Shown piece by piece: positions 19,699-53,455 of a stretch of 64,000 bases of DNA. The translations under genes and the position numbers were made by a program. Below the pieces are notes generated by a model. That model did no database searches. It was given only the letters and a program-made list of their open reading frames with translations, and was not told the origin of the DNA. Each line of letters begins with the position of its first letter. The first letter of the stretch is position 1. The stretch is from an uncultured bacterium (GTDB lineage Bacteria > Chlamydiota > Chlamydiia > Chlamydiales > SM23-39). The DNA lies in assembly GCA_964594545.1 (NCBI GenBank), contig CAZQNB010000002.1, forward strand, positions 19,993 through 83,992. Reading direction: 5' to 3'.

Positions 19699-21445
19699 GA
19701 AAATCCGACGATTGTTATTGCCAAATCCTTTTGATTCGCAATTGAAAAAATGCGTAAAACATGGCGGGAAAAAGGTTCTTCTCGGGTGGAACCGGGGGCT
19801 TGGGGATATTGCGCTTGGCCTTTACGCGATGATTCAAAGGATTCGAGAAAAAGTGCCGGGTGCGGAAATTACGTTTTTGACTCGTCCCAATTTGCAAGAC
19901 GGATTTTCTCTCTTGCGCGGGATTGATGTTTTGATCGATCCCGATCTTAAAAGAGGACAGTGTTGGGACGCTTGCTTTTCCTTAAAAAAACTGGGGATCG
20001 ATCCAAAATCATTTGATCTCATCATTGGAAAGCCGAGTCCCACCGATTGGGTTCCTTGGCAACGGGGGAAGGTAGTGCCTCTTTTAGAATGGGACGCCTC
20101 TTATGAAAATCTATGGCAGAAATTTGGGCTTGAAGAGGGGTTTACCTATATCGGCGTTCAGGTTGTCGTTGAAACAAATTATGGCCCTTGGCGCAATTGG
20201 CCGATTGTTCATTGGAAGCTTCTATTTGCCCGATTAGAAAAACTAAAAAACGTAAAAATCATCTTGCTCGGCGGCGATGAAAAGACCGAATTTCAAGGCG
20301 AGAATCTGATCGACCTTAGAGGGAAAACAACGCTCTTTGAACTTCTATCGATTGCGACGAAATGCTCTCATATGATTCTTCCGGATTCAGGCATTTTATC
20401 GATGGTCTATTATCTCAATTACCCCTTTCCGATCCATCTCATCAGCCTTTGGGGCGATCCAAATCATGGGATTTTAAAACAGGCCGTAAACTCTCCAAAT
20501 CCCCGGTTAAAGCACACCCCGTTGATCGGAGCTCTTCGCGATTTATCAACCGTGACAGTAGATCTAATGATGAATACCCTTTTTCCGGTAAAACCACTTA
20601 AAACATGCCTAAAATCTTCAGAGGTGATTCCGGGCACTCTTGCCCATGTGGGGTGTATTTTATTAGCCGGCGGTCAAGGGACAAGACTTAAAGTTAAAGG
20701 GCCAAAAGGGACTTTTGCAATCCAGGGGAAAAGTCTTTTTGAGTGGGTCGTTGAAAAAGCTCCCAAGGAAAATTTTCCCATTGCCATCATGACATCTCCC
20801 TTAAATCATGAAGAGACGGTTTCGTTTTTTAAGAGAAATGAGAATTTTGGAAGAGAGATCTATTTTTTTTCGCAGGAGATGCTCCCGTTTTTAGATCAGA
20901 AAAAACGGCCCTTGAAAACTCTTGCGCCGAATGGAAACGGCTCGGTGTTTCGCTCATTTTTGCAAAGCGGGCTGTATGATGTTTTCCGAAAAAAGGGGAT
21001 CGATTTATTGACGATTGTCCCTGTTGAAAATCCACTTGCTGATATGGCTGATCTTTCTTTAATTGGGTATGCAAGAGAGACAAAATCGGATGTAACCATC
21101 AAATGCGTGAAGAGAGAATCGCAAGAGGAATCGATGGGAGCCATTGTTGAAAGAGAAGGGAGAATTGAAATTGTGGAGTATATCAATCGAGATCGTTGCC
21201 TTGAGTATGTGTATTCAAATACCGGAATGATGGCGATCTCTATGCCCTTTTTTCATGAGATGTCAAAGCAAGAGCTTCCGCTGCATTGGGTAGAAAAACC
21301 GATTCCGGGAACGAAGAAATTAGGCTGGAAGGGGGAGAAATTCATTTTTGATGCTTTTTGTTTTGGGAATGTGTCAGCTCTTTGCTATGACAAAGGGAGC
21401 TGTTACGCGCCAATCAAATCTATTTATACCATTTATGAGAAATAA
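19691..21445 (+). CDS. fusion protein: GT9-like glycosyltransferase domain plus eukaryotic-type UDP-sugar pyrophosphorylase (UDPGP/UAP) domain
   Basis: N-terminal half has GWNRGLGDIALGLY, WRNWP and LPDSGILSM (GT9-like). C-terminal half has LLAGGQGTRL..GPKG, MTSPLNHEET, PNGNG and GEKFIFD (UDPGP family). Confidence 0.8.
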   Translation: MFKKIRRLLLPNPFDSQLKKCVKHGGKKVLLGWNRGLGDIALGLYAMIQRIREKVPGAEITFLTRPNLQDGFSLLRGIDVLIDPDLKRGQCWDACFSLKKLGIDPKSFDLIIGKPSPTDWVPWQRGKVVPLLEWDASYENLWQKFGLEEGFTYIGVQVVVETNYGPWRNWPIVHWKLLFARLEKLKNVKIILLGGDEKTEFQGENLIDLRGKTTLFELLSIATKCSHMILPDSGILSMVYYLNYPFPIHLISLWGDPNHGILKQAVNSPNPRLKHTPLIGALRDLSTVTVDLMMNTLFPVKPLKTCLKSSEVIPGTLAHVGCILLAGGQGTRLKVKGPKGTFAIQGKSLFEWVVEKAPKENFPIAIMTSPLNHEETVSFFKRNENFGREIYFFSQEMLPFLDQKKRPLKTLAPNGNGSVFRSFLQSGLYDVFRKKGIDLLTIVPVENPLADMADLSLIGYARETKSDVTIKCVKRESQEESMGAIVEREGRIEIVEYINRDRCLEYVYSNTGMMAISMPFFHEMSKQELPLHWVEKPIPGTKKLGWKGEKFIFDAFCFGNVSALCYDKGSCYAPIKSIYTIYEK

Positions 21446-21589
21446 CTTTGAGTTGTAGCGTCGGATAGTGCGTCAGATTTGGACGATCTTTTCGAAGCTG
21501 ATATTCTTGAATATCAGCGAGAAAGGATCGTTCAGAGAGGACGTGCTAGACGATGCTACAACGCAAATCTATTTTTCATAAGTGGTATT
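21425..21589. repeat. B-type palindromic element (about 165 bp), degenerate right arm
   Basis: tataccatttatgagaaataactttgagttgtagcgtcggatagtgcgtca...gacgtgctagacgatgctacaacgcaaatct..cataagtggtat. The left end overlaps the last 21 nt of the preceding CDS. Confidence 0.85.
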
Positions 21590-21645
21590 AATTGCCCATA
21601 AAATCTTTCTTGGATTGGATCGTCTCGTGTGTTAGACTATAGGTC

Positions 21646-22707: not shown

Positions 22708-22877
22708 TAATACCAATCGCAGCAAATAAATTCATATTTAAGCCGCGTGAAAGCTGTCGATAAATCGAAGATCGTAAGTGGCATTGTATTAGGTCAATAC
22801 TATGCCCTTTTTTTAATTGATTTATCGGCAGCTTTCAATCCCGTCCAAACGCCGATTCTTCAAGTTGTTTCGGTATA
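22708..22877. repeat. A-type palindromic element, chimeric copy (left and right arms from different subfamilies)
   Basis: The left arm (taataccaatcgcagcaaataaattcatatttaagccgcg) is not complementary to the right arm (cccgtccaaacgccgattcttcaagttgtttcggtata). The shared core tgaaagctgtcgataaatcga...tgatttatcggcagctttcaa is intact. Confidence 0.85.
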
Positions 22878-22983: not shown

Positions 22984-24165
22984 ATGAGTTCTGTTGTACG
23001 CGTAGACACAGATGGAGTCCCTACATATCGCCCGCCTGCTGTAAATCCTCAATATATCCCGACTGCTGTAAATCCTCAATATATCCCGACTGCTGTAAAT
23101 CCTCAATATATCCCGACTGCCCCACAACACTTTGGAAGGACGCAGGTACAGCTTCAGAGACTGGCTCTCAAAACTCTTGCCGGTGTAGGCGCTTTGGCAG
23201 GAACCTTTGCTGCTATAAAGGGGGATGCAGAAAGAATATTCACTGTCCCGCTTTTATTGGGTTTTGTGGGGGGATGCTTATATGTGGCATCGAATGTAAA
23301 AGACTACGAGGATCCAGACGAACTTCGCGCTATGCAAGAGAATGCGGCAATACAGACTTTTCCTGCCATTATAAAGGAGCATAGCTTAGAAAATACTGTA
23401 AAATATCTTCTGAATGCGGATGTAGTAAAACTCAAATTTAAGGAAGCGTATGGTTTAAGTAAACTTTCTAGACTTCTACAGATCTATCCTTTCGCAATCA
23501 TCCGAAAATATAAATTGGCAGATGACGCTCTCTTGCAAAGATGTTTTTTTAATCAATTGAGAGAGGCCTCTGTTTGGGAGCTTGAAGAATCTTTTGTGAC
23601 AATGTGTAGAATAGAGGGTGTTATTTCTGAGGTTGGAAGCAAGGCGCTGATAGATTTTATTTGTCAAGTAAAGAGCTGTGAGACCAACTACTCAGCCCGT
23701 TGCGCAGATCTGGATACAAAATATCCAGGGCGAACATCAAAACTTCTGAAAGAACTTGATCTGAAAGCAAAAGCACTTCCCGGTGAAGCAGAAAAAATGA
23801 AAAATACGATCCTTCAAAACGGCTATCGGGCAGCAAACGAACAAGCAGAGGTTCGATTAGTCCTAGATACTTTCTTGACGGGTAAATCGGCAATGGAATG
23901 TTTGGGTAATTACGTTGATACTACTGTGCAAGGGAGTGTTGTAGCTCAAGCTACTGCTGCAAAAACTGAACAACAATGGCTTGAGCAACAGTTGACAGCG
24001 ATCGAAACGAAGCGACAGCACATCCTCGAAAAGAACTTTGGGGGTGAGCAAGAAACTTTATATCAGCAGGCCCTTAAGATTCTTGAGTCCGATCGTCGGG
24101 GAACATTATGGCAGTTACAAAGTAAGTTTTACGAGAAAATCTTTGAGCTCTTCGGGGATATTTAG
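22984..24165 (+). CDS. Inc-like protein: N-terminal AVNPQYIPT x3 repeat, bilobed hydrophobic domain, coiled-coil C-terminus
   Basis: AGGAAGG SD before the ATG. Two hydrophobic lobes, LKTLAGVGALAGTFAAI and TVPLLLGFVGGCLYVASNV, are separated by 8 polar residues. Confidence 0.75.
   Translation: MSSVVRVDTDGVPTYRPPAVNPQYIPTAVNPQYIPTAVNPQYIPTAPQHFGRTQVQLQRLALKTLAGVGALAGTFAAIKGDAERIFTVPLLLGFVGGCLYVASNVKDYEDPDELRAMQENAAIQTFPAIIKEHSLENTVKYLLNADVVKLKFKEAYGLSKLSRLLQIYPFAIIRKYKLADDALLQRCFFNQLREASVWELEESFVTMCRIEGVISEVGSKALIDFICQVKSCETNYSARCADLDTKYPGRTSKLLKELDLKAKALPGEAEKMKNTILQNGYRAANEQAEVRLVLDTFLTGKSAMECLGNYVDTTVQGSVVAQATAAKTEQQWLEQQLTAIETKRQHILEKNFGGEQETLYQQALKILESDRRGTLWQLQSKFYEKIFELFGDI
23038..23118 (+). 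repeat. perfect 27-bp tandem repeat x3 inside a CDS
   Basis: gctgtaaatcctcaatatatcccgact repeated three times, in frame (AVNPQYIPT). Confidence 0.95.
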
Positions 24166-27799: not shown

Positions 27800-27964
27800 A
27801 ATACCATTTATCATAAATAACGTTGAGTTGTAGCGTCGGATAGTGCGTCAGATTTGAAGGATCGTTTCGAAACTGATATTCTTGAATATCAGTGAGAAAG
27901 GATCGTTCAAACATGACGCACTATCCGACGCTACAACTCAATGTTGTTTTTGATAGATGGTATA
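27800..27964. repeat. B-type palindromic element (about 165 bp), near-perfect copy
   Basis: aataccatttatcataaataacgttgagttgtagcgtcggatagtgcgtca...tgacgcactatccgacgctacaactcaatgttgtttttgatagatggtata. Confidence 0.9.
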
Positions 27965-28078
27965 AATGAACAGGATCCGCTTCGCTTGCAGGATCGCCAT
28001 GAAGCATGGCGGCAGGATTTTTTCCTGCCGCGAACGAAGTGAGCGATCCTGCCAGCGAAGCGGATCCTGTTCATTTAT
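27961..28078. repeat. C-type palindromic element (about 118 bp), abuts the B-type copy via a shared TATA
   Basis: tataaatgaacaggatccgcttcgcttgcaggatcgc...gcgatcctgccagcgaagcggatcctgttcatttat with an inner hairpin ggcggcagga-tttttt-cctgccgc. Confidence 0.9.
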
Positions 28079-38472: not shown

Positions 38473-38636
38473 TATACCGAAACAACCTCAAAAGTTGGTT
38501 TTTAAGCAGCGTGAAAGCTGCCGAATTTTCTCGATCGCAAGTGCGTTTGTATTTCTAATACTAAGGCACTTGCGATCGAGGAAATTCGGCGCTTTGACGC
38601 GCTTAAAAAATCAGCTTTTGAGGTTGTTTGGGTATA
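38473..38636. repeat. A-type nested palindromic element, full copy, opposite core polarity
   Basis: tataccgaaacaacctcaaaagttgg-tttttaagcagcg-tgaaagctgcc-...-ggcgctttgac-gcgcttaaaaaa-tcagcttttgaggttgtttgggtata. A solo arm fragment follows at 38633-38660. Confidence 0.9.
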
Positions 38637-38680
38637 CCGTTTGTGATTGAAGAAACTTTGTTGGGGGATTTTGTTTTAAT

Positions 38681-41600
38681 ATGAAATTTTTGAAAGCATT
38701 TTTTGTTTTACTTTTCGTTTTGTGTGGTTTTTTTCTACCAAATTGTACCCAAGCAAAACCGTCAGGATTTCAGCTGAGATCTGGCGATGCAAAACCGGTT
38801 ATCCAAAACTCTTCGGACTCTTTCGTTATTGAGAGCTCGAAAAATTCTGTGATTGATTGGGATAGTTTTTCAATTCATACAGGGGAATGTGTCCGCTTTG
38901 AGCAATTGGAAAACACATATGTGCTCAATCGCGTTACAGGCAATGAGGAGAGTGCCATTTTGGGCTCTTTACGCTCGAATGGAGCTGTTTATCTTGTGAA
39001 TCCAAACGGTATTTTGATTGGGAAAGAAGCGTATATTGATACGGCCGGATTTATTGCTTCGACGTTGGATATTTTAGGTTCAGATTTATCTTCGCTTCAG
39101 TTCCTTGGCGATAGCGAAAAAGGGGTTGTCAATCAAGGGAGAATTCATTGCGCAGCGGGGGATGTTTTTCTGATTGGAAAAACAGTCGAAAATAGTGGAA
39201 CAATTGATGCTCCTCAAGGACGGCAGGGCCTTCTCTCCGGTTTTGATGTTCTGATCTTTCCCGAAAAGGCTCCGCAAGTGCGAATTCGGGTAGAAGAATC
39301 GGTCGACGCAGATATTTTAAAAGAAAACCCATATGCACTCGCTATTTGTCATCGTGGGAAAGTTCTGGCTAAAGAAGTGTATCTGATCGCGGAAAATGGC
39401 ATTACAGAAGTCACGGGAACCATTGTCGCTATGAATGGCGAACAAGGAGGGCATGTCCGGGTTCTTGGCGACGAAGTTCTCCTCTTAAATTCAGCTAAGA
39501 TCGATGTATCGGGGAAACAAGGCGGAGGAGAGGCTCTTTTCGGGGGGGATTACCAAGGGAAAAATCCGGAGATCAAAAATGCAAAACATCTTTTCGTTGA
39601 AAAAGATGTTGTTATCAAAGCAAGCGCAAAAGAGGCGGGCAATGGCGGGCGCGTGATTTTCTGGAGCGATGAGGCCACAATTTTTTATGGGTTGGTGGAT
39701 AACAGAGGCGGCGAAGTTCGTGGCGATGGAGGGTTCACCGAGGTGTCCGGTGGGTATTTAAATTTTCAAGGGTTTGTCGATGGGAGCTCTCCGTTTGGAA
39801 GCGCAGGAACGCTCCTGCTCGATCCAACAAATATTACAATTTCGACAGGCGGGGATGCAAACGGATCTTTTTCTGCGGGTATTTGGACTTCAACAGCCTC
39901 TACTGCGACCATCAACACGACCACGCTTCAAACGCAATTAGGATCGAATAATGTCACAATTAATACATCGGGACCTTTTGGGAGTACAGGAACAATTGCA
40001 ATTACTCACCCGATCTCGTGGTCTTCGGCCAATAACTTAACTCTTATTGCCGATGCCTCCATTGCGGTAAGTTCCGGAGCTGCTATTACCTGTTCTTCTA
40101 CAGGTGGAGTGCAGATGACGGCCAAAGGAACCGGCGCTACGGGAACAGGGATATCGTTGGGGTTAAATGCACATATATCTACAACTTCCGGCAATATCAT
40201 TTTGAACGGTACTTCGGGTACGGGGACAAGTGGGTCGGGAATTACCTTCTTAGGAACGATTTCCTCTACAACAGGAACGGTATCTCTTACAGGGACATGT
40301 AGGTCAACTTCTACTGCCCCTATTGGGGTTTCTTTAGGAAATTCTTCTGCCGTAAGAACAACCGGTGGAGGATCTATTGCAATTATAGGAACAGGTTCTG
40401 ATAAAACCGCCGCTAACAGTGCTCACGGTGTTTCGATTGCTGCAGGGGCAGTTGTTAATACAGCAACAGGCAATGGCCCTATTTCGATTACAGGTACTGC
40501 GCGAGCCGGTAATGCCTCTTGTGGGGTGCGTATTTCCAGCGTCACTCCAGGATTGATTGTTAGTGGAACAGGGACGATCACAATCGGCGGAACGAGCAGC
40601 GCAACAACTGCTGGATCTCACGGAGTTTCTATTGCGGCGGCTTGGACGCCCGCAACGACAGGTTTAGTTACTTTATCAGGAACGGGGGGTCCTTCCGGCG
40701 CAAGTCATGGGGTCAATATTGCAGGTACATATACAGGTGCAGGAGATATTGTTTTTGCTAATTGTGTAGGAGGTTCAGGCGGCGGTAATGGAATTAACGT
40801 GGCGGCTGTCTTTACAACAACAGGGACAATTACTGCGACAACAAATATTCGAGGAAACGGGAGCGGAGGGGTTGGGTTTTCCTCCGGCAATACGTTTTCT
40901 ACATCGGGGATAAACAAATCGATTTCGATCACAGCAAGCGCCGGAGGGACCTTAGGCGCTTGTCATGGAATTTCTCTGACAGCGGGCACTTTATCCACAA
41001 CAGGCGGCGGCTCGATCACACTGAATGGAACGGGGGGGGCGAGTAATTTAGCCTCTCACGGAGTGAATATTACAGGGGGAATTCCGTCAGTTTCCACAAC
41101 AACCGGGAATGGCAATATTTCGATCACAGGGACTGCGCAGGGCAGCGCTGCAAGCTTTGGTCTAAATATCGGAGCGAATATCGTAAGCACATCAGGAACC
41201 ATTACAGTGAGCGGAACGAGCAGCGCGACTTTGGGAGGATCTCATGGAGTTTCTATTGCATATTGGACGCCCGCAACGACAGGTTTAGTCACTTTATCAG
41301 GAATGGGGGGACCTACTGGTGCTAGTCATGGGCTTCATATTGGCGGTCAATATATTGGTGTTGGAAATATTGTTTTCATCAATTGTGTAGGCGGAGCAGG
41401 CGGCGGTAATGGAATTAACGTGGGAGCAGGTTTTGTAACGACAGGGTCAATCACCGCAACAACAAACATTCAAGGAAACGGCAGCGGAGGGATTGGGTTT
41501 TTCTGTAACAATTCGTTTTTGTCAACAGCGACACCTCAGCTTGTTTCGATCACAGCGAGCGCCACAGGGAATACGGGCGCTTGTCATGGGATTTCCTTGA

Positions 41601-43150
41601 CAGGAGCCTGCTCTTTAAGAGGCTCAGCGATCACACTCAACGGAACAGGGGGACCGAGTGATTTACTCTCTCATGGAGTCAATATTACAGGCGGAGCTTC
41701 GACAGTGTCCACGACAGTATCAGGCAACGGCCCCATTTCAATTACAGGGACTGCTGCAGGCAGTGCTGCAAGTTTTGGTGTAAATATGGCAGGCAGTGCC
41801 GCGAACTTTGTTGAGAGCGGATCTGGAACCATTACAGTGAGTGGAATAAGCAGCTCTACAGCGGCTGGATCTCACGGAGTTTCTATTTCCTCTGCTTGGG
41901 CGCCGGCAACGACAGGTTTAGTCTCTTTATCGGGAACCGGGGGAGGGACAGGAGCGAGTTGCGGTATTGCAATTGGCGCAAACGTAACCTTTAGCGGCGC
42001 AATTACTATTAACGGCACGGAAGGAGGCGGAGAGGGTTCCTTTGGCAACTCTTTTGGGGGGAATGTAACAACTTCCGCAGGAACTATTGAGGTATTTCAA
42101 AGTTCTACTTTAGCGGCTGCAACAATAATTGATTCGACAAATGGAGGGAGTTTTCCTGGAGGCGCTCTGATTGATTTTTCAGGAGGGACTGCCACGATCG
42201 ATGGCGCGCAAAGTTTGACCTTGGTAGCTGGAACGTCAACAATAAGTTTGGAGGGAGCCGTCGGAGGAACTTCTCCATTAACGAATCTTACATTTACAAG
42301 CGCCAATCTTATTGAGTTGGGAAGCAATATCACTGTAAGCGGCGCAAATCCCCTTACTTTTCCGTTTGCAGTAAGTATTACCGGAACATCAACGATTAAT
42401 ACGAATAATGCGGCTCTCTCCTTTAGTTCAACGATTAATGGCGCGCAAAGTTTGACTCTGAATTCCGGGAGTGCATCTACGACCCTTTCAACAGCAGTTG
42501 GAGGCATCACCGCACTGAATTCTTTTAGCGCAACCTCTGCGACAATTGCGCAAGGGTCAAGTGTAACAACGATAGGGCCGATTACTTACACAGGTTCAAC
42601 AAGCATCAATATCCAAGGTGATTTAACGACAACTGGCGGCGCAATCAGTATGATAGGGCCGGTTTCTTTAACGACATCGCCTTTAAGTTTTGATACAACA
42701 AATGGATCTGCAGACGGCGCTTCTATTTACTTTTCGTCAACGCTCAATGGAGGCTCTAATGTTGCCTTCAGAGCGGGAACTTCGGGAGTGGTCACGTTCA
42801 CCGGTGTTGTCGGAGGGGAGACTCCTCTGGGAACAGTCGTGATTACGAATGCGGCATTAAGTCTTGGAGCGGTCAATATTGGAGGAAATATTACGGCAAA
42901 TTCCTTTGTGCTGTCCTCAGCGTCTCCTGTAACTCTCCTAGGATCTAGCATAATTGATACAAGTGCAGCTGCCGGGTTGGGGATTGTTTTTGGTTCTACA
43001 ATTGACGGAACAACCCCCGGGGGGCAATCTCTTACTTTAATAGCCAATGGAGCGGATACAATCACTCTTCCGGGTAATATTGGGACAAATGTAAGATTAG
43101 GAACATTGACAATTGAAGGGGGGACTGTCGAGGTTCTGATCGGTCCTTAA
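38681..43150 (+). CDS. large two-partner-secretion (TpsA/FhaB-like) exoprotein with beta-helical Gly/Ser/Thr-rich repeats
   Basis: Signal peptide. TPS (haemagglutination activity) domain: SVIDWDSFSIHTGECVRF, VLNRVTG, GAVYLVNPNGILIG. Then about 1300 aa of repeats carrying recurring (S/A/C)HG(V/I)x(I/L) units. Confidence 0.85.
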   Translation: MKFLKAFFVLLFVLCGFFLPNCTQAKPSGFQLRSGDAKPVIQNSSDSFVIESSKNSVIDWDSFSIHTGECVRFEQLENTYVLNRVTGNEESAILGSLRSNGAVYLVNPNGILIGKEAYIDTAGFIASTLDILGSDLSSLQFLGDSEKGVVNQGRIHCAAGDVFLIGKTVENSGTIDAPQGRQGLLSGFDVLIFPEKAPQVRIRVEESVDADILKENPYALAICHRGKVLAKEVYLIAENGITEVTGTIVAMNGEQGGHVRVLGDEVLLLNSAKIDVSGKQGGGEALFGGDYQGKNPEIKNAKHLFVEKDVVIKASAKEAGNGGRVIFWSDEATIFYGLVDNRGGEVRGDGGFTEVSGGYLNFQGFVDGSSPFGSAGTLLLDPTNITISTGGDANGSFSAGIWTSTASTATINTTTLQTQLGSNNVTINTSGPFGSTGTIAITHPISWSSANNLTLIADASIAVSSGAAITCSSTGGVQMTAKGTGATGTGISLGLNAHISTTSGNIILNGTSGTGTSGSGITFLGTISSTTGTVSLTGTCRSTSTAPIGVSLGNSSAVRTTGGGSIAIIGTGSDKTAANSAHGVSIAAGAVVNTATGNGPISITGTARAGNASCGVRISSVTPGLIVSGTGTITIGGTSSATTAGSHGVSIAAAWTPATTGLVTLSGTGGPSGASHGVNIAGTYTGAGDIVFANCVGGSGGGNGINVAAVFTTTGTITATTNIRGNGSGGVGFSSGNTFSTSGINKSISITASAGGTLGACHGISLTAGTLSTTGGGSITLNGTGGASNLASHGVNITGGIPSVSTTTGNGNISITGTAQGSAASFGLNIGANIVSTSGTITVSGTSSATLGGSHGVSIAYWTPATTGLVTLSGMGGPTGASHGLHIGGQYIGVGNIVFINCVGGAGGGNGINVGAGFVTTGSITATTNIQGNGSGGIGFFCNNSFLSTATPQLVSITASATGNTGACHGISLTGACSLRGSAITLNGTGGPSDLLSHGVNITGGASTVSTTVSGNGPISITGTAAGSAASFGVNMAGSAANFVESGSGTITVSGISSSTAAGSHGVSISSAWAPATTGLVSLSGTGGGTGASCGIAIGANVTFSGAITINGTEGGGEGSFGNSFGGNVTTSAGTIEVFQSSTLAAATIIDSTNGGSFPGGALIDFSGGTATIDGAQSLTLVAGTSTISLEGAVGGTSPLTNLTFTSANLIELGSNITVSGANPLTFPFAVSITGTSTINTNNAALSFSSTINGAQSLTLNSGSASTTLSTAVGGITALNSFSATSATIAQGSSVTTIGPITYTGSTSINIQGDLTTTGGAISMIGPVSLTTSPLSFDTTNGSADGASIYFSSTLNGGSNVAFRAGTSGVVTFTGVVGGETPLGTVVITNAALSLGAVNIGGNITANSFVLSSASPVTLLGSSIIDTSAAAGLGIVFGSTIDGTTPGGQSLTLIANGADTITLPGNIGTNVRLGTLTIEGGTVEVLIGP
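40469..42060 (+). repeat. about 2.5 tandem copies of a 618-636-bp (about 208-aa) module inside the TpsA-like gene
   Basis: Module starts at 40469 (GNGPISITGTARAG), 41105 (GNGNISITGTAQGS) and 41723 (GNGPISITGTAAGS). The same internal order ...SHGVSIA..TGLVTLSG..SHGVNI..GGGNGINV.. is seen in each. Confidence 0.85.
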
Positions 43151-43235: not shown

Positions 43236-43316
43236 TATACCGTTCGTAATTGAACAATCGACGTTTGGACGGGTTCAAAGCGCCCAAACGCCGATTCTTC
43301 AATCACGAGCGGTATA
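43236..43316. repeat. A-type palindromic element, short form (81 bp)
   Basis: tataccgttcgtaattgaacaatcgacgtttggacggg-ttcaaagcg-cccaaacgccgattcttcaatcacgagcggtata. Preceded by a mini-hairpin tagtcgattaaatttaatcgacta at 43212-43235. Confidence 0.88.
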
Positions 43317-43327
43317 CAAGGTGGTTT

Positions 43328-44743
43328 TTAACAGATCACAGTATTGGTATGTACCGCTTTCCGAAATGATCTCCCTAAAAATATAGCAACTAACAGCCAT
43401 AACCCAAGGAGAGGGAAACAGATCAGTCCGCTTAGCATCAGATAGTGTGATTTTCCTACCAACGCTCCAAAAGTATTTTGTAGCGGGGCTAATGACATAT
43501 TAAATACAGATCCCGCCTGTTTCGAAGAACGTGAGCCAAATGTTTCGATCCATGCTTGCGCTTTGAATTTCACATCCGGAGTTGTCGGAATATAGAGCTG
43601 TTTTAATGCAGGACCATTGAGCGCGTAATTGATCGCTTTGGATCCAACCATCAGAATAAAAAGGAAGGAGAGCGAATTTAAGGTCAAAAATCCAAACAAA
43701 GCGCCCGCCACGATCACAGGCATCGCAGCTAACGCAACGCCGATACCAAGAAATCGGGTCACATTACTAATCCCCAGAAGAAGGCAGGCCAGAGAGACAA
43801 TATTGACGCTTGAACCATAAATGCTTAAATAATTAGTGAGCGCCACACCAGAATATTCAGAGCTTGCTGCAAGCTTAAAATTAAAATCAAAGATCGTTAC
43901 GACCACTTCATAGATAAAGTTAGCTGCAAAAATGCCAAGAAGATAACGATGCTTAAGAAGCAATTTCAACCCTTCTAAAAATCCGGGTTCTTGCTTCTTT
44001 TCTACTTCGGTCTCATTCTTGCCATGGAATGAAGCCAGTAGATTGGTGGGCGTCACCCTCAAAAAATAACGAACTAACGGGACGAGAAGAAGAATGAGAA
44101 TGCCTAAGCACACCATAGATAGCGCGTCTGTGGAAAGACCAAGCCGATGGGGAAGCCCTCCAATGCTATAAGGGAAAATAATGCCGCCTACTTGGCCGAT
44201 TGCCACAACAAGAGGAAACCCCTTTTTTGCAGCTGCCGCATTTGTTGTGTCGGTTGCAAATGCCCAAAACAGGGCGATCATTAAAGACCCAAAGCTCTCT
44301 ACAAATACATAAAATAAATAGCCGAGGACTTTCGTTGACGCCAAGAAAAAGAAAGGACGGTTATTGATGATCTCCGAGGGAGCCTGAAACCAGAGGATCA
44401 GCCCACTAAAAATAATCACAGCAATTCCATATCCCGTAGGGAGTATAACAAGCATCCTCTCTCGCGAAGTCTTTTCTAGGAGCTTTGTATAAAACATCAC
44501 TAAGGGTAAAAGACATAGAACTGAAAAAGTCTTTGCAAAGGGGAGTTGTAATTTATCCACAAGCTGAATAAATACGGCGTCTTTCAAAGGACGTAATGTC
44601 CAATACACTCCAATCATCAATGCGAAAATTATACCCATTCTAAGGAACTTTTTGAATTCTTCTCTCTCGAAGTTTCCAAAGTTAAATCGACAAACCCATT
44701 GAAAAAGTCCCAGTACCCCACGTGTATCGCTCATAATTCCCAC
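43328..44743 (-). CDS. nucleotide transporter (TLC/NTT ATP:ADP antiporter family)
   Basis: About 12 TM segments. The N-terminal E(F/L)xKFLxMxxxFxxxxxxYxxLRxLKD pattern (EFKKFLRMGIIFALMIGVYWTLRPLKD) is typical of chlamydial and rickettsial NTTs. ATG 44734 is an alternative start. Confidence 0.85.
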   Translation of the reverse strand: MGIMSDTRGVLGLFQWVCRFNFGNFEREEFKKFLRMGIIFALMIGVYWTLRPLKDAVFIQLVDKLQLPFAKTFSVLCLLPLVMFYTKLLEKTSRERMLVILPTGYGIAVIIFSGLILWFQAPSEIINNRPFFFLASTKVLGYLFYVFVESFGSLMIALFWAFATDTTNAAAAKKGFPLVVAIGQVGGIIFPYSIGGLPHRLGLSTDALSMVCLGILILLLVPLVRYFLRVTPTNLLASFHGKNETEVEKKQEPGFLEGLKLLLKHRYLLGIFAANFIYEVVVTIFDFNFKLAASSEYSGVALTNYLSIYGSSVNIVSLACLLLGISNVTRFLGIGVALAAMPVIVAGALFGFLTLNSLSFLFILMVGSKAINYALNGPALKQLYIPTTPDVKFKAQAWIETFGSRSSKQAGSVFNMSLAPLQNTFGALVGKSHYLMLSGLICFPLLGLWLLVAIFLGRSFRKAVHTNTVIC

Positions 44744-44887: not shown

Positions 44888-45055
44888 TATACCGCTCGTG
44901 ATTGAAGACTCTGCGTTTGGGCGGGATTGAAAGCTGCCGATAAATCGAAGATCGTAAGTGGCATTGTATTGACCTAATACAATGCCCTTTTTTTTAATTG
45001 ATTATCAAAGCTTTGAACCCGTCCAAACGCCGATTGTTCAATTACGAACGGTATA
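44888..45055. repeat. A-type nested palindromic element, full copy
   Basis: tataccgctcgtgattgaagactctgcgtttgggcggg-attgaaagctgccgataaatcga-...-cccgtccaaacgccgattgttcaattacgaacggtata. Preceded by a mini-palindrome tatactcgtgc..gcacgagtata at 44857-44890. Confidence 0.9.
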
Positions 45056-45099: not shown

Positions 45100-46389
45100 T
45101 CAAGGAATCTGTGACGGATAGGCTGGTTTGCAATACGTCTCTTTGATCTTCCAAAGCGAAATGAGCGCGATCAGAAGATAAATAGGAAGCGTAAGGAATG
45201 CCGTTTGGTAGGCCTCTACTGAAAATATGCGCGCGCCGTGAGCTGTCATTCCTGTCCATTGGGAGTCGAGAATCTTTCCTGCTAACGGATCTGAAAAGGC
45301 GCCAAATAGGGCGTCAAATGCGTTCATAAAACCAATGGCTGTTGCCGCTAATACTGGCGCGTTGATCTCTCGAATCATCGTAAAGCAAAGCAAAAAGGTG
45401 CTAATGGAAAAACCAAAGGCGAAGAGAAGTGCGGATAGCGTGCAAAGGGAAAACCCGGGCATGTAAATAATGAAAGAAAGGAAAATCATCGAACATAACG
45501 TTCCCCAAAACATGACCCCTTTTCTTTTTTGCAGTCGGTCGGATAAATATCCAAAGGTAGGCGCGCCGATCGCAAACCCGATGAAGATTAGGGAGACTCC
45601 CTTCGCTGCGAGGGGTTCGGAAATTTGGTACGCTTCCGCAAGGAACGAAACGCCCCAAAGCCCTCCAAAGACCATCACGGGAGCAAAAGCAAATCCACTA
45701 TACACGGAGAGCCACCACGACTGGGATGATTTTAAGATTTTTTTCACGCTTTGCACTAGCGTGATTTTCGGCGCTATGATCATTCTTTCGGTTTTGTGAT
45801 CCGGCGCTTTATCGCGGACAACGAGCCAAAAAATACCCGCCAGAACAAGGCCGCCCATGCCGATGAATTTAAGGGCGGGTCTCCACGTGAATACTTCGAT
45901 GAAGTGAGCAAGGGGCGCTTGACCGCCGACTGCTCCAAACATGGCGATCGTCATCATAAGACCCGCCATGAACGCAAACTGCCGGTAGGCAAACCAGTTT
46001 GCTGTCAATTTTAAGCAGTTAACGGCTGCGAAAGCAGCTCCCGCTCCAATCAAAAACCTGCCGATTTCTGCAGTGAAGAATGATCCCGCGCTTGCAAAAA
46101 GAATATTGCCCAGCGCGCAAACGATAATTGCGATCGTGGTCATTTTTCTAGGGCCAAAACGGTCCAGCATGAACCCTGCCGGGATTTGGAGAAGAAGGTA
46201 GGCATAAAAATAAGAGGCTGCCAGATTGCCGAGCTCCACTCCATTGATGTTGAATGCGCTCATGAGAGAGCCCGTCATTACGCTCGGAGACACTTCCAAA
46301 GCGTATTTGTAAAACATGAATAGTGCGCTTAAAAGCCATATAGCCCAAGCGTGCAATGGGTAGGAAAGTTTTTTGGCGTGCTTATGCAT
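45100..46389 (-). CDS. major facilitator superfamily transporter
   Basis: 12 predicted TM segments and an MFS loop 2-3 motif GFMLDRFGPRKM. Confidence 0.85.
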   Translation of the reverse strand: MHKHAKKLSYPLHAWAIWLLSALFMFYKYALEVSPSVMTGSLMSAFNINGVELGNLAASYFYAYLLLQIPAGFMLDRFGPRKMTTIAIIVCALGNILFASAGSFFTAEIGRFLIGAGAAFAAVNCLKLTANWFAYRQFAFMAGLMMTIAMFGAVGGQAPLAHFIEVFTWRPALKFIGMGGLVLAGIFWLVVRDKAPDHKTERMIIAPKITLVQSVKKILKSSQSWWLSVYSGFAFAPVMVFGGLWGVSFLAEAYQISEPLAAKGVSLIFIGFAIGAPTFGYLSDRLQKRKGVMFWGTLCSMIFLSFIIYMPGFSLCTLSALLFAFGFSISTFLLCFTMIREINAPVLAATAIGFMNAFDALFGAFSDPLAGKILDSQWTGMTAHGARIFSVEAYQTAFLTLPIYLLIALISLWKIKETYCKPAYPSQIP

Positions 46390-46425: not shown

Positions 46426-47268
46426 TCAATGCACACTTTGTATGAGGTGGGTCAAAGATTTAAACCACAGAAGAGCTTCTTTGCTCATCACCTGGATGAT
46501 TAACCCCCAAGCGGCAGCTAAGAGCGCAAGGCCGACCCAAGATTTCAGCGGGATGCCGAGGAACACGATTTGCACTTGCGGAGCTAAACGGTTAGCAATC
46601 CCTAAAAACATATCCATCAATAAAATTCCAATCAGCGAGGGCGCTGCAAGCTGGATGCAGAGGTTGAACATTTTTTGCAGCGTCTTCACCATCGTCACCC
46701 AAAACGGGTTCTTTAGATGGAAAAGGTCCGGGCTGATGAGACCGTCGACGGGGATCATTTCGTAGGATGTCGCAACGCCATTGAAAAAATAAATCGGCCC
46801 TCCAAGGGAAAAAAAGAGGGCGATCAGGACTAAGTTAAAGAGAATCCCAATCGAGCCTGTTTGCGATTTTGTGGTCGGATCTGTCACCTGAAGAGAGGAG
46901 GCTCCTCGCTGAAAATCGATTAAGCTTCCCGACATTTGCGCTATGTAGAAGGGAACAGACGCGAGAAATCCAATCACCGCCCCGATGATGAGCTCTTTGA
47001 TGAGAAGCCCCACAAAAGGCATGGCAAAAGGGATGCTTCCGTGGACATGCATGAGATTTTGAGGAAGGAAAATGGCTGTGAGTGAAACGCCAAACATGAC
47101 GCGGATGGTCATGGGAACGTTTTGCGAGCCTAAAAATGGGGCGAGCGCAAGGATGGGGAGCAGTCTTGCCATTGTGAGAAAAAAAACGGAAAGAACGGTG
47201 TAGGGATCAAGATGGGGAAGGTCTAGAAGGAGCGAAAGATACCCGTCTAATGCAGCAGCTGAGTTCAT
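46426..47268 (-). CDS. sctT: type III secretion export apparatus protein SctT (YscT/FliR family)
   Basis: Polytopic 280-aa protein directly downstream of sctS with a 4-nt overlap. Confidence 0.88.
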   Translation of the reverse strand: MNSAAALDGYLSLLLDLPHLDPYTVLSVFFLTMARLLPILALAPFLGSQNVPMTIRVMFGVSLTAIFLPQNLMHVHGSIPFAMPFVGLLIKELIIGAVIGFLASVPFYIAQMSGSLIDFQRGASSLQVTDPTTKSQTGSIGILFNLVLIALFFSLGGPIYFFNGVATSYEMIPVDGLISPDLFHLKNPFWVTMVKTLQKMFNLCIQLAAPSLIGILLMDMFLGIANRLAPQVQIVFLGIPLKSWVGLALLAAAWGLIIQVMSKEALLWFKSLTHLIQSVH

Positions 47269-47537
47269 ACAGCGCTATATTTTTGGATCGCGGCAAATAT
47301 TGTATTTGTATACTGGAGCACTTGCGCGCCTAACCATCCGCTCATAAAAATAATTGTAAACACGACCGCAAATAACTTGACTGTGAAGGAAAGTGTTTGC
47401 TCTTGAATTTGAGTGGCCGCTTGAAAAATCGCAACCAAAAGCCCCAAAATCATACTCACAATGATCGGAGGTCCTGATAAAATCAGGATCAGGATCAGCG
47501 CTTGGTAGGTCAGTTCATAGATTTCATTTGCAAACAT
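47265..47537 (-). CDS. sctS: type III secretion export apparatus protein SctS (YscS/FliQ family)
   Basis: MFANEIYELTYQALILILILSGPPI...AATQIQEQTLSF aligns with YscS from its own N-terminus. The 14 upstream codons in the ORF track are repeat-encoded. Confidence 0.9.
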   Translation of the reverse strand: MFANEIYELTYQALILILILSGPPIIVSMILGLLVAIFQAATQIQEQTLSFTVKLFAVVFTIIFMSGWLGAQVLQYTNTIFAAIQKYSAV

Positions 47538-47703
47538 ATACCGACGATACCTCAATAATTGGTTTTTAGGCGAGTTCAAAGCGCCTATTTTCCAGTTTCG
47601 GAAGAGGGTTCATATTGAAACAAATATGGACCCTCTTCCGAAGCTGAAAAATAGGCAGCTTTCAATCTCGCCTAAAAGCCAATTCTTGAGGTATCTTCGG
47701 TAT
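47537..47703. repeat. A-type nested palindromic element, full copy, filling the sctR-sctS intergenic gap
   Basis: tataccgacgatacctcaataattgg-tttttaggcgag-ttcaaagcgcc-...-ggcagctttcaa-tctcgcctaaaa-gccaattcttgaggtatcttcggtat. Confidence 0.9.
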
Positions 47704-47711
47704 CAACCTTT

Positions 47712-48467
47712 TTATTTAAACGAGATGGCAAGTCCCTGGATTAATACAGTCCACCCATCAACGAGAACCAGCAGGAGTAGTTTGATCGGAAGGGCAATGG
47801 TGAGCGGAGAGAGCATCATCATCCCCATCGCAAGGAGAATGTTGGAAACGACAAGGTCGATCACGAAAAAGGGGAGATAAATGAGGACGCCAATTTCAAA
47901 AGCGGTTTTCAGCTGGCTTGTGATGAATGACGGAATCAAAATAATAAAATCATTTGCTTTGAGCTGCGACTTATACGGCTCCGGGAAAAGGCGGTAGGCG
48001 AGCTTATAGAAACTGGCCATGTTTTTTGTCGTACAGTTGCGCTCTAAAAATCCTTTGAGAGGCTCTTTTGCTTTGTCTACCACGTTAACGATGAACGTTG
48101 CGGCCTCTGACGAAATCACCGTTTGGGGCGCTTGCGTTCGAATCGTCTCTTCAGACGCTTTATACATCGCAAGTCCCGTTGGGAACATCACATAAATGGT
48201 GATGAGAAGCGCAATCCCGTTTAACACTTGGTTTGGTGGCGTTTGTTGGACGCCAAGCGCTTGTCTAAGCAAAGAGAGGACAACCACGATCTTCATGAAA
48301 GAGGTGAGGAGCATGATCGCGAAGGGCAAAAGGGAAAGCCCTGCGAGGACGGCAAGTTTTGTCACCATGCTCGGATTTAAACTGCCGTCTGTGGCTCCCG
48401 CAATCGCTGTTTGCGCCATCAAATGGCTTGTAGAAAAAAGGAGGAAAAAGAGGATGATGTATTTCAT
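47712..48467 (-). CDS. sctR: type III secretion export apparatus protein SctR (YscR/FliP family)
   Basis: FMKIVVVLSLLRQALGVQQTPPNQVLNGIALLITIYVM block typical of the FliP/YscR family. Confidence 0.92.
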   Translation of the reverse strand: MKYIILFFLLFSTSHLMAQTAIAGATDGSLNPSMVTKLAVLAGLSLLPFAIMLLTSFMKIVVVLSLLRQALGVQQTPPNQVLNGIALLITIYVMFPTGLAMYKASEETIRTQAPQTVISSEAATFIVNVVDKAKEPLKGFLERNCTTKNMASFYKLAYRLFPEPYKSQLKANDFIILIPSFITSQLKTAFEIGVLIYLPFFVIDLVVSNILLAMGMMMLSPLTIALPIKLLLLVLVDGWTVLIQGLAISFK

Positions 48468-49096
48468 TTTGAACTGCTTCTAAAGGATTCAAACGCTGAT
48501 TCTAGCGCGCGCCATTGGTTTTCAAGTTGAGCATTGATGATGCCGGCTTCCGTTTCAATCATACATCCTCCGGGTTCGATATCGTCGCGCTCTTGGATGG
48601 AGAGATTTTCCAGATGCTCAAAAATATGTTTGATTTTTGGCCGGTTTGTTTCGATGGCTTCCAGATCCACTCGATTGACATAGATGACAACTTTTTTGTG
48701 TTGCGTCACAGGCTTTAGCGATGTGAGCACAATGTCTACGATCCGATCCGGATGCATTTTGAGCTCTTCGCCGATCAGTTTACGGGCGGCTGTGAGCGCA
48801 AGCGGAAGGATTTTTTGTTGGATGTCTGATCGTAATTTGGAAAGTTCGTGGTCGAGCTCTAAAAGGTGTTTATTGAGAGAAACAAGCCCCTCTTGAAACC
48901 CTTCTTCGAACGCCTGCTCTTTTATTTTTTCTGCTTCCTTCGCATTTTCCTGTTTAAAGTTTTCAGCTTCCTCTTGCACTGTTTCGAGAAGTGTTTTTGC
49001 ATCCAGGAGAGTTGAAAATTCAGCTGCGGGAACAATTTTTTTTCCGGGAGCCATATGAACTTCTTTAGAAGTGAGAAGAGAGAAAAATTTCGCCAT
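48464..49096 (-). CDS. sctL: type III secretion stator protein SctL (YscL/FliH family)
   Basis: Glu/Lys-rich coiled-coil N-terminal half and a FliH-like C-terminal half. ATGA overlap with sctR. Same position as CdsL in Chlamydia. Confidence 0.8.
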   Translation of the reverse strand: MAKFFSLLTSKEVHMAPGKKIVPAAEFSTLLDAKTLLETVQEEAENFKQENAKEAEKIKEQAFEEGFQEGLVSLNKHLLELDHELSKLRSDIQQKILPLALTAARKLIGEELKMHPDRIVDIVLTSLKPVTQHKKVVIYVNRVDLEAIETNRPKIKHIFEHLENLSIQERDDIEPGGCMIETEAGIINAQLENQWRALESAFESFRSSSK

Positions 49097-49106
49097 CTAA
49101 ATATCC

Positions 49107-49934
49107 TTACAAAAGTTCTTTCAGTTGCTCGGCAAGCCAAAGAGCAACGCCCGGAATCGCCTCATTCTTGCAGAGCTTTTCTAACGCTTTGCCTCTTCCG
49201 CTATCAAGCGCATGGCATACATACCAAATCAGATCGGGATCTTGTCCTGATAGCGCATTGCCAAGTCTTGCAAGTCCAATTTTATGAAGCGTAAGCCGCA
49301 GGCTCTCTTTTGTTCCATCCCATTTGTCAAGACGGATTTGCGCTGCCGGATACGGTTCTTTATGGCCTGCGATAGATTTTAAGAACTCTCTTTCGTCATC
49401 TGTTAGGAAACTGTAGATTTTCTTTAGGATTTTTGTCTCTACAATTTGACGAATTTCTGAGGAAAGATCGTAGAGCGAGAGAAGATCGATCAGTTGGGTG
49501 AGCTTTTTTTTTTCTACTTGGAGCAATAGATTCAGCGGAGAGGGAGGGAGGTGATCTATCGGGAGAAGCTCTTCTTTTTGAATGCTGAAATAGAGAGTTT
49601 TTCGTAAAAAATCTGCCGCCACCGGCTTTATTTTTTCCGTTGTGGGGGAGGATCCAAGCGCTTTGCTTAACGCTTTTTGAGAGTTTGCATTAAAAACGCG
49701 TAAAAAGAGTTTTTGCTCTCTTTCAGGGTAGCTTTCTAAAATAGGAAGAAACCAAGACCAGTGAATGGAGTCTAAAAAGTGATAAGACGCCCCCTCTTCT
49801 TGTAGAGGAATATCAGGGAGGGTAGAGAGGGATTCTCTTTCAGATGCGGATAGATGTGAGACAAGGGAGTCTCTTTTTTCGGGAGAAGAGAGGGCGAGAA
49901 ATGCTTTGAGGATGATGCCTCGTCGATTTCTCAT
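49107..49934 (-). CDS. T3SS-cluster protein in the sctK position (positional equivalent of C. trachomatis CT560)
   Basis: Lies between sctJ and sctL, 10 nt from sctL. The call rests on position only; I see no family motif. Confidence 0.55.
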   Translation of the reverse strand: MRNRRGIILKAFLALSSPEKRDSLVSHLSASERESLSTLPDIPLQEEGASYHFLDSIHWSWFLPILESYPEREQKLFLRVFNANSQKALSKALGSSPTTEKIKPVAADFLRKTLYFSIQKEELLPIDHLPPSPLNLLLQVEKKKLTQLIDLLSLYDLSSEIRQIVETKILKKIYSFLTDDEREFLKSIAGHKEPYPAAQIRLDKWDGTKESLRLTLHKIGLARLGNALSGQDPDLIWYVCHALDSGRGKALEKLCKNEAIPGVALWLAEQLKELL

Positions 49935-49943
49935 AAAAATTCC

Positions 49944-50831
49944 TTATGTTGCCGGAGGTTCTTCAGGTTCTGAAGAGGCCTCGTTTTTCTTGAGCAGTTC
50001 TTTCCGGATTTGGGGATAAAATTTGTAGATCGTCCATCCGATGGCAGCGCAAAGGAACGCAATAAATAAAATGAACAGGAAGAAAATCACGCGGAATCGA
50101 GTGAGAGAGCTCTTTGTCAGGATAAGACCCCAGATGCTGACGTGGGTCTCTTGCATCATGCGACCCCCGATGGGCTCTCCCTCGGCCGTTAACGTAATAT
50201 CGGTAAAGCGAGATCTGTCGGAAACAACAATCACATTGTCGTAAGTAAGTCCGTTGACGCTGCCGGCCATGAGTCGTTTGATTTTTGTTTCTAGGTGGCT
50301 ATTTGGATCGTCTAGGATTCCTTGGTGTTTTACGTAGACCGACGCGGTAGTTTTAGGTTGAACGGCTCCCGGAGTTGCGATTGTCTCGGAAGAGGGAAAA
50401 GAGAGTTGTATATCGGCATCGATGACACCGTCGATTTTTCGGATTGTGTTTTTAAGCTCTTCTGCAAGGCCTGCTTGATAGCGGATCGTCTCTTCTCTTT
50501 CTGACGACATCAGACCTGATTTCGCAAAGAGTTCGAGTAAATTGGTCCCCATGCGTCTGGGAAGTCCTACTTTATTCAAGATAGACATGGCGTCGACAGA
50601 GCGATTGGATTCGACCATGATGTTGTATTGGGTGGAAGCTGACGCGGCAGCAAGCTCGCTTACGGCTACTTGAACCTTTTGCGCTGCAATTCCTTTGGAG
50701 GCGAGGTAAACGACGATTTCATTGGCCTCTTTTTCGTCGATATTCGTGACAATCGACTGGTTGCTTTCGCAACTGGTCAAAATCAGCAGTGTTAACAGAG
50801 GAAGGAGGAAGGAAAAGCAGCGTTTCATCAT
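49944..50831 (-). CDS. sctJ: type III secretion inner-membrane ring lipoprotein SctJ (YscJ/PrgK family)
   Basis: Lipobox LILTSCES, EANEIVVYLASKGI start of the YscJ/FliF-like domain and a C-terminal TM segment. Confidence 0.88.
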   Translation of the reverse strand: MMKRCFSFLLPLLTLLILTSCESNQSIVTNIDEKEANEIVVYLASKGIAAQKVQVAVSELAAASASTQYNIMVESNRSVDAMSILNKVGLPRRMGTNLLELFAKSGLMSSEREETIRYQAGLAEELKNTIRKIDGVIDADIQLSFPSSETIATPGAVQPKTTASVYVKHQGILDDPNSHLETKIKRLMAGSVNGLTYDNVIVVSDRSRFTDITLTAEGEPIGGRMMQETHVSIWGLILTKSSLTRFRVIFFLFILFIAFLCAAIGWTIYKFYPQIRKELLKKNEASSEPEEPPAT

Positions 50832-50930: not shown

Positions 50931-51040
50931 ATGAATGAACAGGATCCGCTTCGCTTGCAGGATCGCTCACTTCGTTCGCGGCAGGAAAAAAGAAAGAATC
51001 CATCCTGCCGCCATGCTTCATGGCGATCCTGTTCATTTTT
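50931..51040. repeat. C-type palindromic element, copy with truncated right arm and expanded loop
   Basis: atgaatgaacaggatccgcttcgcttgcaggatcgc-tcacttcgttcgcggcagg...cctgccgccatgcttcatg-gcgatcctgttcatt. It lacks the ccagcgaagcggatcctg segment present at 28040-28067. Confidence 0.85.
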
Positions 51041-51043
51041 AAT

Positions 51044-51118
51044 TATACCGTTCGTAATTGAACAATCGGCAGCTTTGAATCCCGTCCAAACGCCGATTCT
51101 TCAATCACGAGCGGTATA
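51044..51118. repeat. A-type palindromic element, short form (75 bp)
   Basis: tataccgttcgtaattgaacaatcg-gcagctttgaa-tcccgtccaaacgccgattcttcaatcacgagcggtata. Confidence 0.88.
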
Positions 51119-53295: not shown

Positions 53296-53455
53296 CTCGA
53301 CTTTGTACATTTTTCGGTAGCGAGTTTTGCAAGATTTTGATCTACAATCGGTTACAGCTCCCTTCAGTCGGCTTGAACACGCCATTGAAGGGAGCTGTAA
53401 CCGATTGTAGATCAAAAGATTGTGAAAATCGCTCCGAAAAATGTACAAAGTCGAG
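53296..53455. mobile_element. D-type 160-bp palindromic element flanked by a 5-bp direct repeat GGAAG (MITE-like)
   Basis: ctcgactttgtacatttttcgg...ccgaaaaatgtacaaagtcgag. GGAAG is found at 53291-53295 and 53456-53460 and is not part of the palindrome. Confidence 0.8.

Follow-up and report, generated by a model that had tools for sequence, protein, structure and literature searches.

A full-length palindromic repeat of the TATACCG family between sctR and sctS in a type III secretion gene string of an uncultured chlamydia

The present work concerns a stretch of 64,000 nucleotides from an uncultured member of the Chlamydiales (contig CAZQNB010000002.1, positions 19,993 to 83,992; hereafter the window, to which all positions refer), and within it a palindromic element of about 167 nt, here assigned to the TATACCG family after its termini, that lies between the type III secretion system (T3SS) genes sctR and sctS. 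MITEs, or miniature inverted-repeat transposable elements, inside operons are already known, with Correia, Chunjie and ERIC as examples. RNase III cleaves those Correia elements that are transcribed as part of Neisseria operons, and in Geobacter uraniireducens an operon has kept its structure with the Chunjie MITE in it (PMC10969869); the heads of repetitive extragenic palindromic (REP) sequences carry the tetranucleotide GTAG or CGTC (PMC3733652); and in genes 38 and 25 of bacteriophage T4 a hairpin, required for efficient initiation, cuts the spacing between the Shine-Dalgarno (SD) sequence and the AUG, which falls to 5 nt from 22 nt in one case and to 11 nt from 27 nt in the other (PMC3014915). 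Searches of the accessible literature turned up no chlamydial MITE or palindromic repeat, the TATACCG family included; a Waddlia genome paper counted only repeats >200 bp (PMC2878342). An earlier note on this DNA had pointed to REP/BIME and Correia elements; REP, Correia and other MITE elements do form the right class for comparison.

The element at the sctR-sctS junction

The gap between the sctR stop codon (TAA, 47714-47712) and the sctS ATG at 47537 comprises 174 nt (47538-47711). Read on the sctS strand it runs 5'-TAA aaaggttg ATACCGAAG...CGTCGGTAT ATG, that is, a remnant of the old intercistronic spacer (aaaggttg, 47704-47711, minus strand) with an SD-like AAGG at 47707-47710, followed by a palindromic element at 47537-47703. 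The element thereby shares its last base, 47537, with the sctS start codon, of which it is the A. The palindrome is two-tiered, with outer arms of 37 nt (47538-47574 and 47667-47703; 92% complementarity) and inner arms of 34 nt (47583-47616 and 47623-47656; 91% complementarity). A GAGG is present in the sctS-proximal arm (47550-47553, minus strand), 12 nt upstream of the ATG. The 22-nt terminal motif of the element occurs four times in the window, against 0.00 expected.

The earlier note had given the positions of the sctR stop (47712) and the sctS ATG (47537), and both coordinates and gene calls hold, according to the open reading frames (ORFs) and the NCBIfam matches. It had further described a complete element of 167 bp. 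The copy is indeed complete, because the family profile aligns with it over positions 1-166 of 167 (96 bits), the palindrome proper being 166 nt (47538-47703). That the element fills the gap and abuts the ATG is likewise borne out by the sequence, except that the flank on the sctR side is GA (G at 47704) instead of the TA typical of the family. Finally, the hairpin of roughly 80 bp that a polycistronic transcript was expected to carry agrees with the predicted RNA fold, in which the whole region forms one hairpin (~75 bp; -108.2 kcal/mol) with the AAGG 3 nt 5' of its base. Shuffled sequences average -40.9 kcal/mol (z = -16.2), and none of 200 shuffles was equally stable.

The junction was compared at 80 related Chlamydiae loci, encoding SctR proteins 57-83% identical to that of the window and none of them from the same species. 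The gene order sctR-sctS is present at all 80. The gap has a median of 9 nt, in line with the earlier expectation that relatives would show a spacer of a few nucleotides; it measures -1 to 30 nt at 77 loci, and 42, 62 and 581 nt at the remaining three. No copy of the family was found within 3 kb of sctR at any of these loci. In the closest relative (L001) the gap is 7 nt and empty of the element, though the genome (SRR22302347_binner123) carries the family (L088). The start of SctS in the window, MFANE, aligns with residue 1 of the orthologue at 73 of the 80 loci, and the codon is ATG at 67 (e.g. ATGTTTGCCAATGAA); the ATG at 47537 is therefore ancestral. When 47538-47703 are excised, TAAaaaggttgATG is obtained, in which TAA-aaaggttg-ATG has an 8-nt spacer, a length typical of the relatives, and an SD-like AAGG that recalls the TAAGGA-N6-7-ATG junctions at other places in the string. 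By this comparison of sequences, the short gap in relatives and the typical junction left on excision identify the element as a derived insertion at the sctR-sctS junction. Each of three independently sequenced samples yielded a contig that matches the window at 99.6-99.9% identity and has the element with 0 differences over 206 nt; the insertion is fixed in these samples.

The 581-nt gap belongs to Chlamydiae bacterium Ga0074140 (LNES01000006; L020:3700-4280). It holds a GC-rich palindrome of ~450 nt unrelated to the family, with 146-nt arms of 79% complementarity and an RNA fold at z = -14.4; upstream of sctS there is a separate GGGAG. The junction was apparently hit a second time, independently, and large palindromes at this position are therefore tolerated in two lineages.

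Both flanking genes form part of a string on the minus strand. The sctR ORF (47712-48467) encodes an export-gate subunit of the FliP/YscR family, is matched by TIGR01102 (SctR) at 233 bits (cut-off 208.6) and ends in ...SFK*, in agreement with relatives. The sctS ORF (47265-47537; FliQ/YscS family, 90 aa) is intact and is matched by TIGR01403 (SctS) at 91 bits (cut-off 76.5); its product is 52-84% identical to the relatives over the 80 loci and about 75-84% identical to the ten closest. It overlaps by 4 nt with sctT (46426-47268; FliR/YscT family, 280 aa), for which TIGR01401 (SctT) gives 155.9 bits, slightly under the cut-off of 163; Pfam Bac_export_1 is found on a protein identical to SctT of the window. 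Upstream lie sctJ (49944-50831), an ORF of 275 aa (49107-49934) and sctL (48464-49096), sctJ and sctL both scoring above their NCBIfam cut-offs; an MFS transporter gene (45100-46389) comes next after sctT. From sctJ to the MFS gene the junctions measure 9, 10, -4, 174, -4 and 36 nt, in that order. The sctR-sctS gap is the sole outlier, the other junctions within sctJ...sctT spanning -4 to 10 nt, and elsewhere in the string the junctions have the form TAAGGA-N6-7-ATG. The longer order sctJ-orf-sctL-sctR-sctS-sctT was seen only in contigs of this organism itself. The GC content of the window, about 44-45%, resembles the 43.8% given for Waddlia chondrophila (PMC2878342), though this is a resemblance and no more. 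Three other gene models at the junction were rejected: an N-terminally extended sctS ORF from the TTG at 47579, which begins within the element, relatives starting SctS at MF...; an antisense ORF (47626-47880), which also begins within the element; and read-through of sctR into sctS, which share a reading frame but have stop codons between them.

Copies, structure and mobility of the TATACCG family

Members of the family are non-coding, TA-flanked and palindromic over their full length of ~167 nt (163-170 nt among full-length copies), with the ends TATACCG...CGGTATA; the only ORFs in them are chance frames that run out of the element. The window contains five full-length copies, one truncated copy, three short ones and fragments. 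Apart from the sctR-sctS copy, the full-length copies are located at 8312-8478 (137 bits; between divergent genes, and closest to the sctR-sctS copy, with the same outer arms), 38473-38636 (diverged; 44 nt upstream of an ORF of 1489 aa with a two-partner-secretion (TPS) domain), 44888-45055 (decayed, its stem holding 19 pairs that are not Watson-Crick; 44 nt downstream of the MFS gene named above) and 63003-63171 (perfect stem, 0 mismatched pairs). Short derivatives, about 65-80 nt, are found at 51044-51118 (~75 nt; intergenic, upstream of sctJ), 43236-43316 and 63168-63228, the last abutting the full-length copy at 63003-63171; the truncated copy lies at 22745-22877.

The exact 22-nt terminus had no match in 185,579 species-representative genomes; therefore a degenerate signature, TATACCG-N30-32-TTCAAAGCGCC, was searched instead. 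Among the matches listed it gave more than 102 loci, mostly in 11 metagenome-assembled genomes (MAGs) of Chlamydiae, with at least about 50 of the listed loci in MAG BP7.bin23. The family is also borne by SRP287051_co2_217, VAR_78_metabat_106, Parachlamydiales SW_40, SRP302895_co1_246, CTOTU1218, OFTM30, MFD06092, MFD09495 and MaH-04nov19-293, as well as by SRR22302347_binner123, mentioned above. Matches were judged with a profile built from 50 full copies, by which those in other phyla were rejected, as were two on viral contigs, put down to chance. On this sequence evidence the present genome is rich in the family, which many environmental Chlamydiae carry as well. For the organism of the window, short-read contigs (L083, L186-L188) end within family elements, L083 at window ~47630, in the centre of the sctR-sctS palindrome; since the elements fragment assemblies, MAGs may under-count copies.

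The termini TATACCG...CGGTATA are kept in all 53 aligned copies, and the arms are complementary over the whole length. Stem cells of this alignment are paired in 95.1% of cases, compared with 78.7% in shuffles and 34-47% when the partners are slid, and compensatory double changes are seen in 50 of the 68 stem pairs. Mismatches of the G-U type (85) and of the A-C type (78) are balanced, so the pairing constraint is symmetric between strands; such symmetry would be predicted of a DNA palindrome, or of single-stranded DNA folded from either strand, but not of an RNA acting in one orientation. About 40 nt from each end an asymmetry is conserved, GGTTCAAAGC-GCC on one arm against GGCAGCTTTCAATCC on the other (alignment columns 39-52 and 129-146; in the window e.g. 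8347-8360 and 8428-8443), giving one C.C or G.G mismatch plus bulges in every copy of the family; it is possibly by this interruption that the mobilising factor recognises the element.

Outside TACC...GGTA, a TA is present on 72 of 76 flanks on each side, with no longer direct repeat. The flanking TA could be a target-site duplication, as for elements of the IS630/mariner type, or part of the terminal repeat. Where family elements lie end to end (window 63165-63228 and 38634-38660; L124:380-410), the junctions disagree, reading CGGTATACCG for the window but CGGTATATACC for L124; the arrangement suggests that a new copy entered the terminal TA of one already in place. Genomic context could be classified for 64 of 90 full copies: 33 lie between co-directional, 18 between convergent and 11 between divergent genes, and two inside long ORFs. 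Relative to flanking transcription, 14 copies have the same and 19 the opposite orientation, that is, no bias. Tight intercistronic copies are otherwise rare among those examined; a second copy abutting a start was observed in Parachlamydiales SW_40 (L111, 2677-2845), 1 nt upstream of the putative ATG of a 220-aa ORF and 50 nt downstream of a preceding co-directional ORF of 404 aa.

As regards classification, the family consists of small non-coding elements with terminal inverted repeats and many dispersed copies, and it shows presence and absence at an orthologous site, as MITEs do. Within the ~1.2 Mb searched no cognate autonomous insertion sequence with the same termini was found: pairs of matching ends 300-5000 bp apart enclose only ordinary genes (RluA-like, MFS, ATPase), and an autonomous partner may lie outside that sequence. 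Neither GTAG nor CGTC, the tetranucleotides of REP heads, is present in the termini. No Rfam family matched the element at or above its gathering threshold; the best matches, rox1 (34.5 vs 58 bits) and miRNA precursors, are generic hairpins under threshold. Taken together, these properties describe a mobile hairpin resembling MITEs and REPINs, the latter being doublets of REP sequences.

Several other repeats of the window were noted. A gene for a TLC ATP/ADP transporter (43328-44743; Pfam PF03219) is bracketed by the short element at 43236-43316 and the long one at 44888-45055, the outward 40-nt ends of which are identical at 39 of 40 positions and in inverted orientation; the bracket may resemble a composite transposon, or be a coincidence. 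Palindromic repeats unrelated to the TATACCG family are located at 21426-21592 and 27801-27967, at 27962-28078 and 50931-50966, and at 53311-53441, one of these unrelated families being present also in the intergenic region upstream of sctJ. The 1489-aa ORF (38681-43150) has the N-terminal TPS secretion domain of a two-partner-secretion exoprotein and contains, at 40556-41943, tandem repeats of about 621-630 nt. A 27-nt tandem repeat (CCTCAATATATCCCGACTGCTGTAAAT) occurs at 23020-23120 in at least three units of 89-100% identity.

Expression of sctS across the element

Consensus scans of the coding strand in and next to the element (47538-47711) revealed no sigma-70-like promoter and no intrinsic terminator, with the qualification that chlamydial promoters can be atypical. 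Given this result, and the lack of an Rfam family, a single transcript carrying the hairpin is the simplest expectation. Accessibility was computed on the predicted ensemble of a 341-nt mRNA segment. In it the GAGG of the arm is fully paired (P(unpaired) 0.00) and costs 14.8 kcal/mol to open; the sctS AUG is mostly free (0.64-0.72) and the old AAGG partly so (0.24-0.65). Opening the region from -18 to +13 costs 26.2 kcal/mol with the element, against 5.9 kcal/mol with the element excised. Because the insert is a complete palindrome, its ends adjoin when folded, and the sctR stop and the AAGG are predicted to sit beside the sctS AUG: in silico the AAGG is 3 nt 5' and the AUG 0 nt 3' of the stem, the geometry of a split ribosome-binding site (RBS).

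The reading that we favour, and hold to be somewhat probable, is that of a tolerated selfish insertion, MITE- or REPIN-like, which is co-transcribed as a hairpin and whose palindromic nature limits the damage. The mobile repeat would have entered at a TA formed by the last base of the spacer and the A of the sctS ATG, splitting an ancestral 8-nt junction (TAA-AAAGGTTx-ATG) that was probably translationally coupled, and leaving the sctS start codon and the C-terminus of SctR intact. The string sctJ...sctT would most likely still be one RNA, in which the element folds into a hairpin of ~75 bp; as a complete palindrome it would extrude from the message, which would place the sctR stop and the old AAGG 3-8 nt 5' of the base of the stem, and the sctS AUG directly 3' of that base. 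From this re-juxtaposed junction sctS would be translated, as in the split RBS of T4 genes 38 and 25, or else, by an alternative route, after RNase III has cut the long duplex; translation from the buried GAGG would be less likely. The net effect would probably be a neutral to mildly harmful change in the output of sctS-sctT, tolerated and not an evolved regulatory device. A selfish insertion is preferred to an evolved regulator because the family has no orientation bias and occupies every intergenic context, and because the insertion is absent from all 80 relatives.

Some points weigh against this reading. We infer co-transcription, formation of the hairpin in vivo and translation of sctS, and the effect on fitness likewise. 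The mobility of the family is read from its distribution alone, no autonomous partner having been found. The T4 hairpins that serve as precedent measure a few bp, compared with the rod of ~75 bp that would stand here between SD and AUG; the AAGG is a weak SD of 4 nt, and the ancestral junction may have used termination-reinitiation. In addition, three derived substitutions relieve pairing around the AUG. Alone among 76 loci, this one has GA replacing TA on a flank, and the changed base (47704) is the pairing partner of the A of AUG, reversion G>T lowering P(unpaired) from 0.72 to 0.09; the other two are the non-wobble mismatches of this copy, which lie in the outer stem and together save 7.4 kcal/mol in opening -18 to +13. 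They could, weakly, reflect selection on the copy, which would then not be simply neutral. The outer-stem positions are variable throughout the family, and three substitutions are too few for statistics.

A credible, if unlikely, alternative is an adaptive post-transcriptional regulator, in which RNase III or another double-strand-specific nuclease cuts the duplex and so sets the output of SctR relative to that of SctS and SctT; the sctJ-sctR fragment would end in a protective 3' stem and the downstream fragment would expose GAGG and AUG. A near-perfect RNA duplex of ~75 bp is a classic RNase III substrate, and in Neisseria operons the enzyme cleaves Correia elements at their inverted repeats, affecting expression (PMC10969869). 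In the model, GAGG and AUG would become usable together only once the 5' arm is removed, and the three substitutions near the AUG reduce its sequestration. The copy is fixed in the three samples. Against this, the insertion is confined to the present species, the family has neither orientation bias nor a preference for operons, the conservation of the stem is strand-symmetric, as a constraint at the DNA level predicts, the substitutions are few, and cleavage could equally be a tolerated side effect.

We regard as doubtful, too, the notion that the hairpin is a working part of the operon, be it a shunt or split RBS across the extruded 166-nt duplex or an RNase III switch that sets the ratio SctR:SctS:SctT. 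Either version implies that the copy was adjusted once in place, by the T>G change in the flank and by the stem mismatches that free the AUG. In the first version the AUG of sctS would be reached across the duplex by ribosomes that have just terminated on sctR, or by 30S subunits bound to the old AAGG; if true, its scale would be unprecedented for a bacterial shunt or split RBS. If the notion holds, no MITE/REPIN-like mobile hairpin would have been described in Chlamydiae before this family, and the asymmetric mismatch conserved in it would suggest that the element is recognised as single-stranded DNA in folded form.

The earlier note had let the element itself supply a new RBS, the GAGG in its arm. 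The position 12 nt before the ATG is correct, and GAGG matches the anti-SD better than AAGG does, its distance from the terminus being constant in arms of this type (CTTGAGGTATCTTCGGTATA). As an RBS in the folded RNA, however, the GAGG is unlikely on the modelled ensemble, in which it is fully paired, and no translating ribosome melts the stem, because the sctR stop lies 8 nt before it. The optimum for the spacing between SD and start is usually shorter than 12 nt, and the other arm types of the family are without GAGG. We consider this origin of the sctS RBS improbable.

Transcriptional uncoupling, in which the element would partly terminate transcription or make it pause after sctR, or would carry an outward promoter for sctS-sctT, is held to be quite improbable. 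The very stable hairpin is followed by AUGUUUG, with four U in the next 8 nt, and MITEs such as Correia can carry promoter elements (PMC10969869). The scans described above, however, found neither kind of site on the coding strand, atypical chlamydial promoters again granted; the base of the stem is rich in A and U and is not followed by a true U-tract; and sctS-sctT, intact and highly conserved, would be left without a recognisable promoter. Silencing of sctS-sctT, in a cluster that is decaying or backed up by another copy, is very improbable: although a standard ribosome footprint costs about 20 kcal/mol more to open with the element, both genes are full length without frameshifts or stops (with SctS above and SctT slightly below the NCBIfam cut-off), the identity of SctS to its relatives is that given above, the genes are intact even though the arms have diverged by about four mismatched pairs plus indels, so that the insertion is not brand new, and Chlamydiae depend on their T3SS.

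Significance and comparison with described systems

In the T3SS-dependent, obligate intracellular Chlamydiae, the usual junctions between sctR, sctS and sctT measure 0-10 nt. The locus is a natural experiment, in which a duplex of ~75 bp is placed exactly between the stop and the next start of essential genes. It can show whether translational coupling is dispensable at sctR-sctS, whether a complete palindrome is structurally invisible by re-joining its own flanks, and whether processing by RNase III matters in chlamydial operons. The family itself is widespread in MAGs of environmental Chlamydiae, breaks short-read assemblies, and is below the 200-bp repeat threshold of at least one chlamydial genome paper (PMC2878342).

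Correia elements (CREE/NEMIS; Neisseria) are alike in being small, non-coding and multi-copy, with inverted termini and TA at both ends; and in that they can lie between genes or ahead of them and be transcribed together with operons, the paired repeats of Correia being RNase III substrates (PMC10969869). They differ in host phylum, pair only via terminal repeats of ~26 bp and carry a site for integration host factor, whereas the TATACCG family forms a palindrome along all of its ~167 nt, compensatory change being seen in 50 of 68 stem pairs; the two are set apart here by description. REPINs, mobilised by REP-associated tyrosine transposases (RAYT), share the long hairpin made of two inverted halves, the many intergenic copies and the compensatory change, a likeness which suggests recognition as a folded single strand. 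They differ in the REP head, GTAG or CGTC, where the chlamydial family has a TATACCG end with a TA flank; a gene of the RAYT or IS200 type did not come to light in the sequence covered, although no search was aimed at one.

The palindromic elements of Rickettsia (RPE) are repeats of ~100-150 nt in an obligate intracellular host as well (PMC10969869), but are typically in frame within genes, unlike the chlamydial family, of which two of the 64 classifiable copies lie in a long ORF. Chunjie, ERIC, BOX and RUP likewise place a repeat in an operon without destroying its structure; families and hosts are unrelated, and in the present case the insertion touches the start codon in an otherwise tightly coupled junction. 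With the split RBS of T4, finally, the locus has in common an intervening hairpin, which here is predicted to bring a distant SD near the AUG, AAGG and AUG flanking the stem; the T4 hairpins are short and evolved for this role, whereas the duplex between sctR and sctS is predicted to be ~75 bp long and is transposon-derived.

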